A stretch of 64,000 nucleotides of DNA, taken from contig JAQXJR010000035.1 in the NCBI GenBank assembly GCA_029009055.1, positions 6,196 to 70,195 on the forward strand, in the 5' to 3' direction. Positions within the stretch are counted from its first letter, which is position 1, and every line of letters starts with the position of its first letter. Under the pieces are notes generated by a model that was not told the DNA's origin, did no database searches, and was given only the letters and a program-made list of their open reading frames with translations. Of the stretch, positions 18,312 through 25,111 are shown one piece after another. The position numbers and the translations under genes are program-made. This DNA is from Eubacteriales bacterium. GTDB lineage: Bacteria > Bacillota > Clostridia > Peptostreptococcales > Anaerovoracaceae.

Positions 18312-19331
18312 TTAATTCTGCCTTTCTGTCCCAGAATCGTCTGAACGCTTGCCTTTCATGCCGCGCTTCTTCTTTTTCTGCTCCCTTTTCTGTTCGTCAG
18401 AAGTGTGCCGCTCCCAAAAGACTCCGTCGGTATAACCCTGGATGGTCTTATCCGTGTCCGCTGTCTCAAGCCTCTTCTCGGCCCAAGCGCAATACTGCGG
18501 ATTTATCTCTATCCCTATATATCTGCGTCCCAGCTTCTTCGCCGCCACCGCCGTAGACCCGGACCCAGCGAATGGATCCAGCACCAGGTCTCCCGGGTCA
18601 GAGCTCGCCAATATCAACTTAGCCAGCAGCTTCTCCGGCTTCTGGGTCGGGTGAGCGGTGTTCTCAGGCATAGACCAGTATGGCACAGAAATGTCATCCC
18701 AGAAATTAGAGGCGTACGTATTGCGAAAATTCCCACGGCTGGTCTCCTCCCAGTCCTTTGGCTCCCCATCCTTCTTATATGGGGCGAGCACCTGCCTCCT
18801 CACCTTCACGGCGTCAGCGTGGAACTTATAGCCATCACCGAGCACGGCGTACCATATATCCTCCATGGAGTTCTTCCAGTTGTTTTCTGTGCCTCTGCCC
18901 TTCTCGCGCTCCCAGGTTATCCTGTTCCTTATGTTGAAATACCTGCCCAGGATCGTGCCTATAAGAGGGCTGGTCTTCCAGTCACAGCAGACATAAACGC
19001 TGCAGCCCGCTTTCAAGGCCGGGAACACGGCTTCTATCCACCTGACCGTGAACCGCTCATACTCCTCCGGACTCGTCTTCTTAAATTTCCTGCCCGAGAA
19101 ATCCTTATCCATATTGTATGGAGGATCCACTATGAGAAGATCCACGCTTTCCTTCGGCAGCCTCTTCAGGACATCGAAACAGTCCCCCAGTATTATAGTG
19201 TCATTCGCTTCTCCCGTGGCGAATGGCGCGTCTGAAGCGTCTCCCCTCAGGCACATGTCCAGGTATTTCTGTCCCTCTTCCAGGCTGAAGTCTATCGTTT
19301 TATTTCTCTCTGATTTTATTTTCTTCCGCAT
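18312..19331 (-). CDS. Solitary site-specific DNA methyltransferase (N4C/N6A, beta class)
   Basis: Motif IV DPPY near the N-terminus, HPTQKP, motif I DPFAGSG near the C-terminus, and GIEIN. Confidence 0.88.
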   Translation of the reverse strand: MRKKIKSERNKTIDFSLEEGQKYLDMCLRGDASDAPFATGEANDTIILGDCFDVLKRLPKESVDLLIVDPPYNMDKDFSGRKFKKTSPEEYERFTVRWIEAVFPALKAGCSVYVCCDWKTSPLIGTILGRYFNIRNRITWEREKGRGTENNWKNSMEDIWYAVLGDGYKFHADAVKVRRQVLAPYKKDGEPKDWEETSRGNFRNTYASNFWDDISVPYWSMPENTAHPTQKPEKLLAKLILASSDPGDLVLDPFAGSGSTAVAAKKLGRRYIGIEINPQYCAWAEKRLETADTDKTIQGYTDGVFWERHTSDEQKREQKKKKRGMKGKRSDDSGTERQN

Positions 19332-19845
19332 TACAGTGTTTCGCTCGATTTACATTAATATTTAGATCCTTGCTTACATTTATAACATATCCGAGTAATT
19401 CTTTCACGCCGGGTTTATCCCTCGCTGCTGCCCGAGCAAAGCCGCGAGCTCTGACTTTGCTCAGGAGCGATCCAGCTTAATACGGCACTTGATTACGGTC
19501 AGCCACAAAATTTCTCCGACGTGTTTTGTATACATGAAACAGAAATAGAACACCCGACTAAAAAAATAAATGGATTTTTATTCATCCGCAATAATCTACC
19601 TTACAAAATAATGTTTGAGAAAAATCACTTTTGTTATATCACACTACAGACATTTTATTTATTTTGTTTTTGACCCACAATATTTTCGGGATTTTTTGAA
19701 AAATCGTTAATAAATATAAACTTTTAGGTGCATAAATTTCCCAACGTGCTAAAATGCTATGGTAACGCTATTCAGGACCGTGACGAAAAACTAGCCGGAC
19801 TTGTTACACGTTATCATAAAATTATTTATTACATAAGGAGTTATT

Positions 19846-21762
19846 ATGGACAAGAAAGAATTCAAGCCTTATGTCCCAGCCAGCTCAGCCATGTCGGAAA
19901 TGACAGCGGCTTCACTCGTACTGGGAATCATACTGGCAATAGTCTTCGGCGCCGCTAACGCTTACCTGGGACTCCGCGTAGGACTCACAGTGTCAGCTTC
20001 CATCCCGGCTGCCGTAATTTCCATGGGTGTCATCCGCTTCATCCTGAAGAAGGACTCCATCCTGGAGAACAATATGGTCCAGACCATTGGTTCCGCCGGT
20101 GAGTCTCTGGCGGCCGGCGCCATATTCACACTTCCTGCCATCTTCATGTGGGTACATGAGGGTTCGGTTACGGAATCACCTAACCTGCTCACTATCGCTG
20201 TAGTCTGCATCTCCGGTGGTATCCTGGGAATCCTCTTCATGATCCCTCTCAGAAGAGCCCTCATCGTTAAGGAGCACGGTGTTCTCCCTTATCCGGAGGG
20301 AACAGCCTGCGCTGAGGTACTGATCGCCGGCGAGAAAGGCGGATCAGCAGCCAGCACAGTATTCGCGGGACTGGGACTCGCTACGCTCTATAAGTTCGTA
20401 GCAGACGGTCTTAAGTTATTCCCGAGCGAGATCGCTACTAAGATAAAAGGAATGAAGGGCGCGGGCTTCGGTATGGACGTACTTCCTGCCCTGGTAGGTG
20501 TAGGATACATCTGCGGACCAACCATCTCAGCATACATGTTCGGCGGAGCTATCCTGGCATGGTTCGTTATCATGCCGCTTATCGCCCTGTTCGGAGGAGA
20601 CATAACCATGTTCCCTTCAACAGTTCCTATCAGTCAGATGGAGCCATCAGCTCTCTGGTCCAGCTATATCAGATACATCGGAGCCGGAGCCGTAGCTGCC
20701 GGCGGTATCATCTCTCTGGTTAAGGCCCTCCCTCTGATCGTCCGCACGTTCAGAGACAGCATGAAGGACCTGACATCAGGAGCTGGCGGAGAAACTACAC
20801 TCGAGAGGACGAACATAGACCTTCCTAATAAGGTGATCATTACGCTCTCAGCCATCATCCTTCTGGTACTGGCCTTCTTCCCTGGTCTTCCGCTCAACCT
20901 GTTCACAGCGATCCTGATCCTGATCTTCGGTTTCTTCTTCGCTACAGTATCTTCTAGAATGGTAGGTCTGGTTGGAAGTTCCAATAACCCTGTATCAGGA
21001 ATGGCCATCGCCACACTGCTGATCTCCACACTCCTGCTGAAGGTAACAGGAAACGGCGGCGCTTCCGGCATGGTATCCGCTATCATGGTCGGCACAGTTA
21101 TCTGCGTAATAGCAGCTATAGCCGGAGATATCTCTCAGGACCTGAAGACAGGATATATCGTAGGAGCTACTCCTAAGAAACAGCAGATCGGAGAGATCGT
21201 CGGAGTCATCGCTTCCGGCATCGCTATCGCTTTCGTACTCAACCTGCTTAACACAGCATGGGGCTTCGGAACAGCTGAGCTCCCTGCTCCACAGGCTACA
21301 CTTATGAAGCTGGTAGTTGAAGGCGTTATGGGCGGAAACCTTCCTTGGAACCTCGTATTCATCGGCGTATTCATCGCTGTAGTAGTAGAGCTCCTGGGCC
21401 TGCCTGTACTCCCTGTAGCCATCGGTCTCTACCTGCCTATATTCACATCATCCGCTATCATGGTCGGAGGAGTCGCTAGATGGGCAGTAGAGAAGAAGAC
21501 AGCTAAGGACGCTGAGAAGCAGAAGACAGCCACGACTAACGGCGTTCTTTACTGCTCAGGTCTCATAGCCGGCGAGGGAATCGTAGGTATCCTCCTGGCC
21601 CTCTTCGCTATCATCCCGCATGGTAACGGAACACTGGCTCAGGCAGTAGACCTCTCAGCAAAGGGAATCTCTCTCGGCGCTCCGGGGAGCATCGTAATAT
21701 TCGCCCTCCTCATAGCATCACTGTTCATGTTCTGCTTCAGAAAGGACAAGGCTTCTAAGTAA
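19846..21762 (+). CDS. Oligopeptide transporter, OPT family
   Basis: AYLGLRVGLTVSASIPAAVISM, LENNMVQTIGSAGES, LPYPEGTACAEVL, SNNPVSGM, SQDLKTG and LPAPQA. Confidence 0.93.
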   Translation: MDKKEFKPYVPASSAMSEMTAASLVLGIILAIVFGAANAYLGLRVGLTVSASIPAAVISMGVIRFILKKDSILENNMVQTIGSAGESLAAGAIFTLPAIFMWVHEGSVTESPNLLTIAVVCISGGILGILFMIPLRRALIVKEHGVLPYPEGTACAEVLIAGEKGGSAASTVFAGLGLATLYKFVADGLKLFPSEIATKIKGMKGAGFGMDVLPALVGVGYICGPTISAYMFGGAILAWFVIMPLIALFGGDITMFPSTVPISQMEPSALWSSYIRYIGAGAVAAGGIISLVKALPLIVRTFRDSMKDLTSGAGGETTLERTNIDLPNKVIITLSAIILLVLAFFPGLPLNLFTAILILIFGFFFATVSSRMVGLVGSSNNPVSGMAIATLLISTLLLKVTGNGGASGMVSAIMVGTVICVIAAIAGDISQDLKTGYIVGATPKKQQIGEIVGVIASGIAIAFVLNLLNTAWGFGTAELPAPQATLMKLVVEGVMGGNLPWNLVFIGVFIAVVVELLGLPVLPVAIGLYLPIFTSSAIMVGGVARWAVEKKTAKDAEKQKTATTNGVLYCSGLIAGEGIVGILLALFAIIPHGNGTLAQAVDLSAKGISLGAPGSIVIFALLIASLFMFCFRKDKASK

Positions 21763-21836
21763 TACTTAGTAAATAAGCGCTTTTAGGCGGAGAGACATTT
21801 GCTTCTCTTCGCCTTTTATTTTAGAATGAACATATT

Positions 21837-22217
21837 ATGGGTAAAAAGATAAATAAAAATGATAACTACCTGGACCTGATTCCATCTGTAAGAGATGGGC
21901 TTAAGTGGAAGGAAGCTGACGGCATCGTCACCATATTCCAGGAGAATAAGGGATTCTTCAACGGTGTGGCTCAGAAGTTCTTCGGCAGGCCTAAGGTAAG
22001 TGAAATAGAGCTGGATAAGTTCGGCAGTTTCGTATGGCTCAGCATAGATGGAGTTAACGACATAGCGAAGATCGGCGAAGCCGTTAAGGCGGAATTCGGC
22101 GATGAGGCGGAGCCGCTCTATGAGAGGCTTTCCAAGTATTTCAACACTCTGGACATGCTTCATTACGTCACGCTGGAACAGCCGGCTCAGGAAAGGACAG
22201 ATACAGAAAATGAGTGA
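21837..22217 (+). CDS. PqqD-family / RiPP recognition element-like small protein
   Basis: NYLDLIP..IELDKFGSFVWLSIDG..IGEAVKAEFGDEAEPLYERLSKYFNTL fits the PqqD winged-helix pattern. Confidence 0.75.
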   Translation: MGKKINKNDNYLDLIPSVRDGLKWKEADGIVTIFQENKGFFNGVAQKFFGRPKVSEIELDKFGSFVWLSIDGVNDIAKIGEAVKAEFGDEAEPLYERLSKYFNTLDMLHYVTLEQPAQERTDTENE

Positions 22218-23664
22218 AGAAATCAACGTCCCAGGCACAGTAGAAGTATTTAAGTTTTTCTCAGAGCTTTCCCAGGTCCCACGTGGATCCAGGTACACGA
22301 AGAAGATAAGCGATTTCCTCGTAGATTTCGCTAAAGAGAGAAATCTCAGCTATTATCAGGATAAGCTGAATAACGTCATTATCCGTAAAGAAGCCTCTGA
22401 GGGCTATGAGAACGCGGATCCTGTCATCCTCCAGGCCCACATAGACATGGTATGTGAGAAGGTACCGGGATCTACTCATGATTTCGAAAACGATCCTATC
22501 TCTATTCATGTAGATGGAGACTGGATGACTGCAGATGGAACCACCCTGGGCGGTGATGACGGCATAGGCGTAGCCATGATCCTCACAGTTCTGGATTCCG
22601 ATGAGATAAAGCACCCTGCCATAGAGGGCATATTCACAGTAGATGAAGAAATCGGCCTCCTGGGAGCTGCCGGTCTGGACGCGAATCAGATCCACGCCAG
22701 AAAGATGATAAACCTGGATTCAGAAGAGGAAGGCATCATCACAGTAGGGTGTGGCGGCGGTGCTGAAGCCGACATCATACTTCCTGTAGCCAGAGAGAAT
22801 AAGAAGGGCCTTAATGTCACACTTAAGATAGACGGCCTCAGAGGCGGCCACTCCGGAGCAGAGATCCATAAGGAGCGCGCTAACGCCAACATACTCATGG
22901 GAAGACTGCTCTACGAAGTTAAGAGATCTGTTCCATTCAGCCTGGTAAACCTGGCAGGAGGAAATAAGAATAACGCCATCACTAAGATCTGCGAGGCTGA
23001 CATAGTAATAGAGCCTGTAGATTATGAAGAACTCTGCGATGTAGTAGATCAGGTGGCTAAGGACCTGGCTCACGAATACAGGAACTCTGATCCTGACGTA
23101 AAGCTCAGCGTAATTAAGGGTGAAGTAGGTAAAGCACTGGCAATCACAGAAGGTTCCCTGGAATGCCTGGTAACGTTCCTTATGAACGCTCCTCAGGGCA
23201 TCCAGCACATGTCCACAGACCTGGAAGGCCTGGTAGAAACCAGCCTTAACCTGGGCGTCCTGAACCTGACGGAAAACGAGCTCAGAGGCGAGTTCTGCGT
23301 GAGAAGCGCTGTAGCCAGCAGAAGACATAATCTCCAGGATAAGCTCGACTCCCTGCTTACCAGCCTGGGCGGATATGTAAATATCCAGGGCGAATACCCA
23401 GCATGGGAATATAAGGCTGACTCTACCCTGCGCGACGTCAGCGTTAAGGTATACGAAGAACAGTATGGAGAAGAACCTAGAGTAGAAGCCATCCACGCCG
23501 GTCTGGAATGCGGCCTCTTCGCAGGAAAACTCGGCGAGGACTATGACGCCATCTCCATCGGACCTGACATGGAAGGAGTCCACACGACAGAAGAAAGGCT
23601 CAACATCCCTTCAACTAAGCGCGTTTGGAAGTACCTCACAGGTGTACTCGCGGCAATGAAATAA
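22210..23664 (+). CDS. pepD: Aminoacyl-histidine dipeptidase (M20)
   Basis: ILQAHIDMVCEK, TTLGGDDGIG, FTVDEEIGL, NLDSEE, GGHSG and IHAGLECG. The true start is ATG 22210 (MSEEI), overlapping the pqqD-like gene. Confidence 0.92.
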   Translation: MSEEINVPGTVEVFKFFSELSQVPRGSRYTKKISDFLVDFAKERNLSYYQDKLNNVIIRKEASEGYENADPVILQAHIDMVCEKVPGSTHDFENDPISIHVDGDWMTADGTTLGGDDGIGVAMILTVLDSDEIKHPAIEGIFTVDEEIGLLGAAGLDANQIHARKMINLDSEEEGIITVGCGGGAEADIILPVARENKKGLNVTLKIDGLRGGHSGAEIHKERANANILMGRLLYEVKRSVPFSLVNLAGGNKNNAITKICEADIVIEPVDYEELCDVVDQVAKDLAHEYRNSDPDVKLSVIKGEVGKALAITEGSLECLVTFLMNAPQGIQHMSTDLEGLVETSLNLGVLNLTENELRGEFCVRSAVASRRHNLQDKLDSLLTSLGGYVNIQGEYPAWEYKADSTLRDVSVKVYEEQYGEEPRVEAIHAGLECGLFAGKLGEDYDAISIGPDMEGVHTTEERLNIPSTKRVWKYLTGVLAAMK

Positions 23665-23692
23665 TATCAATTATATATTTCTGTAATGAATT

Positions 23693-23722
23693 GGGCTGTC
23701 CCTACGTAAAAGGCAGCCTTTT
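23693..23722 (+). terminator. Intrinsic terminator after pepD
   Basis: GGCTGTC...GGCAGCC-TTTT. Confidence 0.65.
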
Positions 23723-23730
23723 CACTACTC

Positions 23731-23923
23731 TGTGAAGGGCGGCTTCGCTAAGTCCTCGGGCCAGGCGGTCAGCGCGCTCACTCGCAAAGGACAGAAGCCA
23801 TGGAAAACTCGCTCCATAAGTCGCTCGAACGATCCCATGGCTTCTGTTCTTTTTGCTCGTATCGCTGCTTCCCGCACGCTGTCCCTGCGGAGCCGCTCAA
23901 CCGCCCTCCCCCGAGCATTCACA
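23731..23923. repeat. 193-bp nested palindromic element (MITE/REP-like or structured ncRNA)
   Basis: Nested inverted pairs: TGTGAA/TTCACA, CTCGGG/CCCGAG, GGCGGT/ACCGCC, and a perfect 13-bp core ACAGAAGCCATGG/CCATGGCTTCTGT. Confidence 0.55.
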
Positions 23924-24049
23924 AGTCTACTCTTTGCTCAGTTCCAAACCAATCATCACAGAAAATTCAACTGAATTAAGATAAAATAATTAGCCCCCTA
24001 TATCCCTCCAATGGTAGAATAAAGTGAATATTTATATGGAGAACAATTA

Positions 24050-25111
24050 ATGGATAAGAAAAATGTACGTTCGAAGGTTATTTGGGCGCTGCTTTTCATA
24101 TTAATAATGTGGTTGACTGTTAAGGCAGTCTCGACCCAGGCGGAGGATTTCTCGCTCAGTCAGCTTCTGGACATGATGAAGGACGCGAGGAAGATCCCTC
24201 TCATCCTGGCATTTCTAGCTTCGGCGGGATACGTCATATTCGAGGGAGTCGCCTTGCTGAGGATATCAGCGGAACTCGGCTATAAGAAGCCTGTTCATAG
24301 AGGCATGCTATACGCCGTGGCGGATGTATATTTCTCAGCCATAACCCCGTCAGCATCGGGTGGTCAGCCTGCTGTCCTCTACTTCATGAAGAAGGACGGC
24401 ATACCGGTTCCGGTCGGGACCGCCGCTCTGGTAGCTGACCTGGTCGCTTATACGATCGCGATCCTTATTCTCGGCGCCATATCTATAATTTTCGGCTTCA
24501 AGACATTCACAGAGTTTTCTATATTTTCTAAATTCCTGATCATAATCGGCTATGTCACCCTGACTGGGCTGGCGGTCTTCTTCATACTTCTTCTAAAGCG
24601 GGTGGACCTGCTTAGAAAGATGGCGGACTGGGTCATAAAGCTCCTGGTAAAGCATAATGTCATAAAACAGGAAGAGAAAATCAGAAATAATATCACTGGA
24701 ATACTGGACAGGTATTCACAAGCCACAGATATAATGAATGGCAGGAACAGGCTCACGTTCGACCTGGTAATTATGACCTTGATCCAGAGAGCGTCCCAGA
24801 TAGCGGTCCCGGTCTTCCTTTGGCTGGCTATATGCCCGGCGGGTATGGGGCGCCTCGCCCTGAGGGCCTTCTTCGTGCAATGCTTTGCTGTATTAGGCTC
24901 CAACTGCATGCCGGTACCGGGCGCCATGGGCGTGATAGACATGCTGATGTATGACGGCTTCAACGAATTCATGAGCCCCGCCACAGCCGTTAAATTCGAG
25001 ATATTGAGCCGCGGCATAAGTTTCTATATCTCAGTCGCCCTGAGCCTGCTGATCGTCGCTGTCGGCTACATCATAAGCCTGATCCATAAGAATCGGCTGG
25101 CGGAGAATTGA
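24050..25111 (+). CDS. Lysylphosphatidylglycerol synthase TM-domain (UPF0104 flippase-like) protein
   Basis: Multi-TM protein with YFSAITPSASGGQP, PVPGAMG and SRGISFY. Confidence 0.85.
   Translation: MDKKNVRSKVIWALLFILIMWLTVKAVSTQAEDFSLSQLLDMMKDARKIPLILAFLASAGYVIFEGVALLRISAELGYKKPVHRGMLYAVADVYFSAITPSASGGQPAVLYFMKKDGIPVPVGTAALVADLVAYTIAILILGAISIIFGFKTFTEFSIFSKFLIIIGYVTLTGLAVFFILLLKRVDLLRKMADWVIKLLVKHNVIKQEEKIRNNITGILDRYSQATDIMNGRNRLTFDLVIMTLIQRASQIAVPVFLWLAICPAGMGRLALRAFFVQCFAVLGSNCMPVPGAMGVIDMLMYDGFNEFMSPATAVKFEILSRGISFYISVALSLLIVAVGYIISLIHKNRLAEN

Follow-up and report, generated by a model that had tools for sequence, protein, structure and literature searches.

RiPP recognition elements (RREs) serve as a class-independent beacon for the mining of RiPP gene clusters, and for small soluble regulators that are encoded beside their own transporter glnK-amtB provides the precedent. 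To our knowledge, bacterial transporters of the OPT family have hardly been characterised, and we know of no soluble partner for them. It has been reported in the survey of Gomolplitinant and Saier (2011; PMC3061005) that prokaryotic OPT genes commonly stand in operons with peptidases, and a P. gingivalis opt mutant shows reduced uptake of several dipeptides (PMC8048996). Here we analysed a window of 64,000 nucleotides, by which we mean the whole stretch of DNA, in which an OPT gene, a small PqqD/RRE gene and pepD form three real ORFs (Table 1). The initial annotation had described them as co-oriented, and all three are indeed on the + strand. They are surrounded by genes for a methylase, an SNF symporter, an LPG-synthase-like protein and an acyl-CoA ligase. 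As had been claimed, no radical SAM gene lies near the locus, neither in the 64-kb window nor on the whole contig (C35), and an Rfam scan of 19200-24100 gave no match, with no riboswitch and no T-box leader.

Table 1. Features of the OPT, small PqqD/RRE-fold and PepD locus (positions in the window)
Feature	Position	Strand	Details and basis
Intergenic region upstream of OPT	19332..19845	+	AT-rich, GC 0.29-0.43; divergent from DNA methylase gene
Possible extended -10, TGCTAAAAT	19747-19755	+	Read by eye from sequence only
OPT-family oligopeptide transporter, 638 aa	19846..21762	+	PF03169 and TIGR00733
Intrinsic-terminator-like hairpin and T-run, between OPT and small gene	21785..21823	+	11-bp stem, 8-nt loop
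-10-like hexamer, TAGAAT	21822..21827	+	9 nt before small-gene ATG; sequence
Stand-alone PqqD/RRE-fold protein, 126 aa, pI 4.8	21837..22217	+	PF05402, AlphaFold2, structure matches
PepD, M20 Xaa-His (aminoacyl-histidine) dipeptidase, 484 aa	22210..23664	+	TIGR01893, PF01546, PF07687
Weaker terminator-like hairpin after pepD	23693..23723	+	8-bp stem, 11-nt loop, UUUU, z -2.6

The outer two genes encode clear family members. The OPT protein, the product of a single-copy gene in this genome, matches PF03169 (E 3.7e-103, 346.7 bits, above the curated cut-off) and TIGR00733 (438.9 bits, cut-off 182.5) at full length, the matches covering residues 18-587, and among solved structures its only relative is barley YS1 (7wsr, E 9e-14). 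PepD gives a full-length match to the subfamily TIGR01893 (572.6 bits, cut-off 343.75) and contains the M20 catalytic and dimerisation domains; since it falls below the level of the E. coli PepD equivalog (NF011600, 315 vs 991), it is classed by its profile scores as a family member and not as a strict orthologue of E. coli PepD. With a pepD start at ATG 22210, which is supported by the TIGR01893 alignment and by the orthologue in the closest species (G411), the last 8 nt of the small gene are shared with pepD (ATGAGTGA), in line with the overlap first noted, and the same ATGAGTGA junction is present in G411. A start at 22102, as in the longest pepD ORF, would probably make the gene too long.

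The transcript layout differs from the one first proposed. The strongest terminator-like site of the region is the hairpin at 21785-21814, with six G-C pairs in its stem and a T-run, and the 86-nt segment 21755-21840 around it folds with -21.1 kcal/mol (z -2.6); in G411 a hairpin of different sequence occupies the equivalent position between OPT and the small gene. A terminator-like hairpin also follows pepD, although it is the weaker one and was skipped by the consensus terminator scan because its loop exceeds 8 nt. The initial annotation was therefore right to place a terminator after pepD but not in calling it the only one, and the locus is more than a plain operon with a single terminator. 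Similarly, the region 5' of the OPT gene is AT-rich as stated (GC 0.29 at 19550-19849), but as a promoter it is not confirmed: no consensus sigma-70 promoter scored upstream of OPT. A dispersed repeat with a long palindrome lies 3' of the hairpin after pepD. No Shine-Dalgarno sequence is present before the small gene, and the TAGAAT hexamer, whose counterpart in G411 is TATAAT at equal distance to the small gene, may, to judge from the sequence, mark a leaderless small-gene/pepD transcript. In the window genome and its nearest relative, the hairpin would uncouple the small gene from OPT, with translational coupling to pepD instead, and the small gene would possibly be expressed from such a leaderless transcript.

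The initial annotation had taken the small protein for an RRE and had proposed a check against PF05402. This profile is matched with 28.4 bits (cut-off 23.4) over residues 57-107, and a precomputed PF05402 match is present in most homologues, while the PqqD equivalog TIGR03859 is missed (13.8 bits, cut-off 46) and the annotated neighbourhood of the gene contains no pqq genes. In the AlphaFold2 monomer model (pLDDT 81) a beta-sheet is followed by three helices in a winged-helix fold that is superposable on solved RREs, namely TbiB1 (5v1u; Z 11.2, rmsd 2.5 Å, 84/84 residues aligned), 6jx3 (Z 9.8) and PqqD (5sxy; Z 8.7), and the better-aligned matches among the top 40 Foldseek rows are mostly RRE-containing proteins; the RRE fold is thus borne out. 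The family comprises 815 representatives (50%-identity clusters) at E<=1e-10. Its core motifs LD..GS.VW...DG and FG..AEP...R are conserved regardless of the upstream transporter, which fits a common ligand class. Residues 37-53 form a conserved, family-specific insert (pLDDT about 54 in the monomer model), the sequence of which varies between Clostridia, Bacilli and Bacteroidota. A search for fused longer forms found none, which is weak evidence, and a single-protein locus scan with the small protein gave 3 loci only. One representative of 477 aa consists of the small-protein domain and a cadherin-like domain. A 167-aa protein made up of an OPT fragment and PqqD has the look of an artefact of gene calling or assembly.

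The neighbourhood survey that had also been proposed shows that the gene order of the window recurs. In the Clostridia sample of 400 scored genomes, the small gene was found in 101 and OPT in 117, and by coordinates the small gene lies directly downstream of OPT in 97 of the 98 genomes with both. It follows OPT in 20/20 Bacilli loci and directly follows either OPT or an MFS transporter in 25/28 Bacteroidota loci. The two genes are closely packed, with a gap of at most 17 nt or an overlap in 51 of 60 full OPT/small-gene pairs and a start/stop overlap in 17 of the 60. The order OPT-small gene-PepD was seen in at least six species of the window's genus, in 2/20 Bacilli loci and in 17/28 Bacteroidota loci. 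Seven other Bacteroidota loci have a version with a non-homologous transporter, in the order MFS transporter-small gene-X250, where X250 denotes a protein of 250 aa that is predicted to form an outer-membrane barrel; an M29 aminopeptidase comes after X250 in both loci scanned (L134 and L135). In one Clostridia genome a TldD/PmbA peptidase pair precedes the small gene. A transporter/small-gene/peptidase module, and with it the peptide uptake and hydrolysis originally suggested, is well supported by these arrangements. However, PepD is absent downstream of the small gene in 29/29 Clostridia loci and 18/20 Bacilli loci, and it is therefore with the transporter, rather than with the peptidase, that the small gene is constantly paired. 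Conversely, OPT and PepD are adjacent without the small gene in G012 and G063, and the small gene is absent with eukaryotic OPTs and with a bacterial OPT clade of about 30% identity, so that it is not required for transport itself.

We tentatively favour, at slightly under an even chance, the explanation that the 126-aa protein assists proton-coupled peptide importers as a cytoplasmic, peptide-binding accessory with an RRE fold, acting between uptake and exopeptidases and with no role in RiPP or PQQ biosynthesis. Its partner would be OPT in this and most other genomes, and one particular MFS transporter in part of the Bacteroidota. Oligopeptides would enter via OPT, and the small protein would then bind the incoming peptide on the cytoplasmic side as an added strand in the beta3/alpha3 groove, as an RRE binds a leader peptide; this could trap the substrate and limit back-flux through a reversible secondary carrier. 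In a third step the small protein would pass the peptide on to exopeptidases of the cytoplasm, and PepD would deal with the remaining dipeptides. We observe the fold, the lack of RiPP genes and a conserved gene linkage; that peptides are bound, trapped and handed on is what we infer from them. The hand-off of imported peptides to PepD, as initially envisaged, is a plausible proposal; however, a dedicated hand-off of this kind cannot be the general role, as most Clostridia and Bacilli loci have no adjacent peptidase. Moreover, PepD acts on dipeptides, which do not reach the length that strand binding of the RRE type requires.

A subunit or regulator of the transporter would account just as well for the tight overlap of the two genes. 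We consider it unlikely, though not far-fetched, that the small protein docks on the cytoplasmic face or a loop of OPT or MFS and gates or stabilises it in the manner of GlnK-AmtB, perhaps responding to the cytoplasmic peptide pool, with no onward carriage of substrate. The position of the small gene immediately 3' of the transporter gene in all three groups would be expected of a subunit, and the start/stop overlaps suggest matched co-production, yet the core motifs are unchanged whether the upstream transporter is OPT or the non-homologous MFS protein, a few genomes (G194 and G245) have the small gene without any OPT found, and in the window genome and G411 the hairpin splits the gene from OPT, to be coupled to pepD. 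We modelled an artificial read-through chain, in which the single TAA between the two genes was read as Gly, on the basis that OPT and the small gene share a frame in 15 loci; the alignment, with L073 (758 aa) as its first row, was built from unpaired OPT and small-protein rows, leaving out nine distant OPT rows that were misaligned into the RRE part. The AlphaFold2 model of this chain has pLDDT 82.9 and pTM 0.76, global scores that are silent on docking. The conserved insert, poorly modelled in the monomer, counts for a subunit in that its pLDDT is 81 in the chain, albeit with another sequence and a deeper alignment than in the monomer model. We draw no conclusion on an interface from this construct. 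The linker and the C-terminal tail of OPT are disordered in it, and the differences in insert sequence between Clostridia, Bacilli and Bacteroidota also argue against a subunit.

A role as a winged-helix transcription regulator of the peptide-uptake locus, that is as a DNA-binding relative of RREs, appears improbable. RREs are structurally akin to winged helix-turn-helix DNA binders, no other regulator gene was seen in the locus, and the authors of RRE-Finder remark that discrete RRE-like proteins outside RiPP clusters may bind DNA (PMC7470986). Against this, the window protein is acidic (net charge about -7; the family-core median pI is 5.9), its best-conserved motif (AEP.., where helix 3 begins) is acidic as well, a Pfam search gave no HTH family match, the best structure matches are peptide-bound RREs over the full length, and regulators are not usually coupled in translation to a membrane transporter. 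On charge and fold we have set this explanation aside. Most improbable of all is a true RiPP recognition element working for a maturase elsewhere or for an unrecognised peptide exported or imported by OPT: PF05402 membership, the RRE fold and the 15 radical SAM genes of the genome, one of them for a SPASM enzyme, would allow it, but this SPASM enzyme, the only RRE-bearing one, has its own fused N-terminal RRE, for which reason a RiPP cluster elsewhere using the small protein was set aside, the contig is free of radical SAM genes, the locus has unrelated neighbours in place of a precursor peptide and modifying enzyme, the gene after the OPT/small-gene pair is not constant and frequently lies on the other strand, and in more than 150 loci, drawn from three large taxa, it is importers and exopeptidases that are conserved next to the small gene, and in no case RiPP maturases. 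The early reading of an RRE outside any RiPP pathway is supported.

In hundreds of bacteria, spread over three large groups, an RRE-fold gene directly follows a peptide importer and often precedes a peptidase, which points to a hitherto undescribed function as a helper in everyday peptide nutrition. We would go further only with added reserve, and see it as possible that a so far undescribed role of the RRE fold in primary metabolism is widespread: the small protein would receive peptides in the cytoplasm, dedicated to OPT and one MFS clade, and couple their uptake to exopeptidases. It would then correspond, as a soluble protein inside the cell, to the binding proteins that ABC peptide importers have outside it; RiPP recognition elements may have been recruited from such a receiver family, or the reverse. 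For RRE-based genome mining, the family is a systematic source of non-RiPP matches. Its genes lie in loci for peptide nutrition in Bacillota and Bacteroidota of the gut, rumen and mouth, and as a conserved partner of OPT it offers a concrete handle on the carrier mechanism and on the tie between uptake and hydrolysis. The organisms that carry it are peptide-dependent, and related Bacteroidota include the oral P. gingivalis, in which OPT contributes to peptide uptake (PMC8048996). A literature search for PqqD together with OPT or with aminoacyl-histidine dipeptidase yielded no paper combining both, and two RRE survey papers, searched by term, gave no mention of oligopeptide transporters or of the OPT/small-gene context.

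Among known systems, the small protein is most similar to the discrete RREs, the lasso-peptide B1 proteins (TbiB1, 5v1u/5v1v; 6jx3) and PqqD (5sxy, 3g2b). Like these it is a small stand-alone protein (about 90-125 aa) with a PF05402 domain and the strand-plus-three-helix winged-helix fold, and the three superpositions given above have rmsd values of 2.5-3.3 Å. Unlike these it has no precursor peptide, protease, cyclase or radical SAM partner, its conserved neighbours being primary-metabolism peptide importers and exopeptidases, and its family adds an N-terminal N.L...P motif, the 17-residue insert before beta3 and a C-terminal strand; from PqqD it is further set apart by the missed equivalog. 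With GlnK-AmtB it shares the conserved two-gene unit, often translationally coupled, of a membrane transporter and a cytoplasmic protein of about 115 aa. However, the folds are unrelated, PII in GlnK and winged helix here, the transporter partner comes from two superfamilies, and docking would be hypothetical in the unit described here. Finally, the locus resembles the prokaryotic OPT-peptidase operons and the eukaryotic OPT-peptidase fusions (Gomolplitinant & Saier, 2011; PMC3061005), in which the linkage of OPT to a cytoplasmic peptidase is read as coupled uptake and hydrolysis; we found OPT-PepD linkage in four separate settings. A term search of that survey brought up no PqqD-like small gene standing between the two, while in the loci described here this gene is the most constant partner of OPT.

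The initial annotation had described three co-oriented genes in the window, the second of them a small PqqD-like gene with a RiPP recognition element (RRE) fold that overlaps pepD, and each of these points was borne out. Family models identify the first gene as a full-length OPT-family transporter, which a scan of the 1.71-Mb genome found to be its only OPT gene, and with the most likely pepD start the overlap between the small gene and pepD is 8 nt (ATGAGTGA). A solitary N6/N4 DNA methyltransferase gene lies divergent from the OPT promoter region, with no restriction gene among its annotated neighbours. The small protein passes the PF05402 cut-off (28.4 against 23.4 bits), its match to the true PqqD equivalog model being below threshold. 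An AlphaFold2 model built from 29 homologues (pLDDT 81) has three strands, an insert (residues 37-53, conserved yet of low confidence), a fourth strand, three helices and a final strand. RRE-containing proteins made up most of the better-aligned matches among the top 40 from Foldseek, and in VIA-align the model matched the lasso-peptide protein TbiB1 (5v1u; Z 11.2, rmsd 2.5 Å, all 84 residues), a second B1 protein (6jx3; Z 9.8) and PqqD (5sxy; Z 8.7), by which the RRE fold was confirmed for the predicted structure.

Features of the window and related genes elsewhere (L numbers, fetched loci; C20, another contig of the same genome)
Feature	Position	Strand	Details
DNA methyltransferase	window 18312-19331	minus	PF01555
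OPT transporter, 638 aa	window 19846-21762	+	PF03169 E 3.7e-103; TIGR00733 439 bits
Terminator-like hairpin followed by TTTTATTTT	window 21785-21823	+	11-bp stem, 6 G-C pairs
Small gene, 126-aa acidic protein, pI 4.8	window 21837-22217	+	PF05402 (PqqD)
pepD, 484-aa M20 Xaa-His dipeptidase	start most likely ATG 22210	+	TIGR01893 573 bits
Weaker hairpin after pepD	window 23693-23723	+	8-bp stem, UUUU
GC-rich intergenic repeat, about 190 bp	window 23731-23923		20-bp palindromic stem, z -4.7
X250, about 250 aa	L135:1766-2527; homologues in L144, L145, L150, L155, L158, L160		directly 3' of small gene in MFS-linked Bacteroidota loci
Radical SAM/SPASM enzyme, 502 aa	C20:42894-44402 (L002:217-1725)	minus	PF04055, PF13186, weak PF05402

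The constant partner of the small gene is an importer. The family comprises 815 representatives (50%-identity clusters, E<=1e-10), and of the 150 listed almost every one is a stand-alone protein of some 105-135 aa. Among 400 Clostridia genomes scored, 101 have the small gene and 117 an OPT gene; in 97 of the 98 genomes with both, they lie side by side in the same orientation, the exception (G126) having the small gene on another contig beside a phage-type integrase gene. The two are separated by at most 17 nt or overlap in 51 of 60 full Clostridia pairs, and in some loci they have a common reading frame. Within Clostridia the pairing holds down to OPTs only 33% identical to that of the window, and in this sample no OPT of a shorter clade, at about 30% identity, had the small gene as its partner. 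In Bacilli the small gene was present in 27 of 251 genomes, and OPT lies directly 5' of it in 20/20 loci. The neighbourhood survey therefore upheld the OPT link of the proposed operon, but PepD proved optional, being downstream of the small gene in none of the 29 Clostridia loci, where the gene after the pair is often on the opposite strand, and following it in only 2/20 Bacilli loci.

The link with PepD is nevertheless real, if secondary, and PepD is best described as a recurrent, optional third member. At least six species of the window's genus have OPT, the small gene and PepD in collinear order, with spacings between the last two genes from overlap to about 570 nt. In Bacteroidota (family present in 28 of 251 sampled genomes) this order accounts for 17 loci, beside OPT-MFS-small gene-X250 (three), MFS-small gene-X250 (four), OPT-small gene and small gene-PepD (one each) and other arrangements (two). 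In all eight OPT-small gene-PepD loci retrieved with extended flanks an MFS gene comes next, followed by X250 in six, the remaining two ending before that point. An M29 aminopeptidase gene (PF02073) lies 3' of X250 in both MFS-linked loci scanned (L134, L135), and one Clostridia genome has a TldD/PmbA peptidase pair followed by the small gene. Thus the small protein recurs between importers of two unrelated superfamilies and exopeptidases of three unrelated families, and the common theme is peptides. The core motifs LD..GS.VW...DG and FG..AEP...R are kept across the four groups irrespective of the upstream transporter, and the insert before beta3 differs in sequence by group. X250 matched no Pfam or NCBIfam family; in the ESM Atlas it lies close to clusters of outer-membrane beta-barrel or opacity-porin-like proteins (scores 0.97-0.98), a resemblance that we treat as a lead only. 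If X250 were such a barrel, the locus would span outer membrane, inner membrane and cytoplasm. OPT and PepD also adjoin, in either order, without the small gene in two Clostridia genomes (L106 in G012, L108 in G063), which could serve as natural controls lacking the partner in comparisons or experiments.

A single terminator had been placed after pepD. A hairpin is indeed present there, but it is weaker, and the site most like a terminator in this region falls within the 74 nt that separate OPT from the small gene, where an 86-nt segment around the hairpin folds at -21.1 kcal/mol (z -2.6). No Shine-Dalgarno sequence is present before the small gene, and a -10-like TAGAAT lies 9 nt 5' of its ATG. 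In the closest species found (G411; OPT 79% identical), the layout is the same and the letters differ: a hairpin lies 3' of OPT, a perfect TATAAT 9 nt ahead of the small-gene ATG, and the junction with pepD is identical to the window's. From this layout we infer that in both genomes OPT would end its own transcript, at least partly, and that the small gene and pepD may be translationally coupled in a unit that is possibly leaderless. Just 3' of the pepD hairpin lies a repeat that resembles a dispersed element of the REP or MITE type; about 10 copies (77-89% identity) are found elsewhere in the genome, on contigs C1, C10 (three), C12, C19, C23, C31 and C34 (two), and the congener G408 has copies too.

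To our knowledge, the RRE fold is known for one biochemical activity only, in which a short linear peptide is bound as an additional strand. Taking this together with the gene linkage, we tentatively suggest, at slightly less than even chances, that the small protein serves secondary importers as a peptide receiver in the cytoplasm, which would trap incoming oligopeptides on the cytoplasmic side and keep them accessible to exopeptidases. The chief alternative is that the protein acts as a transporter subunit, regulatory or structural, comparable to GlnK. This would explain the tight overlap with OPT equally well; however, the exchange of OPT for MFS and the apparent uncoupling from OPT in the window genome fit it less well, and we consider it rather unlikely. 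A DNA-binding regulator is improbable given the acidic charge and the fold matches. Genuine service in a RiPP pathway is the least credible, as every context examined speaks against it: the absence of a nearby radical SAM enzyme, noted initially, holds for the entire contig, which carries none of the genome's 15 such genes, and the window neighbours encode a DNA methylase, an SNF symporter, an LPG-synthase-like membrane protein and an acyl-CoA ligase. PF05402-like sequence occurs at just one other place in the genome, the N-terminus of the C20 radical SAM/SPASM enzyme, a possible RiPP maturase that thus has its own RRE.

NCBI names members of the small-protein family only 'PqqD family protein', and our literature search found no paper that mentions PqqD together with either OPT or aminoacyl-histidine dipeptidase. 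The RRE-Finder paper speaks of 'false positives', discrete RRE-like proteins that lie outside lasso clusters (PMC7470986); term searches of that paper and of an RRE survey from 2025 based on structures turned up neither oligopeptide transporters nor an OPT-linked context. In a Porphyromonas gingivalis opt mutant, uptake of several dipeptides was moderately lower (PMC8048996). Saier's group reported that prokaryotic OPT genes are often in operons with peptidases and proposed coupled uptake and hydrolysis; a term search of their paper found no small PqqD-like gene mentioned (PMC3061005). The peptide-salvage module proposed initially is right in outline, the handing of peptides from OPT to PepD by the RRE being plausible, but its fixed element is the importer and not PepD, and its terminator picture differs. 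We class the system as a putative case of an RRE fold at work in primary peptide metabolism.
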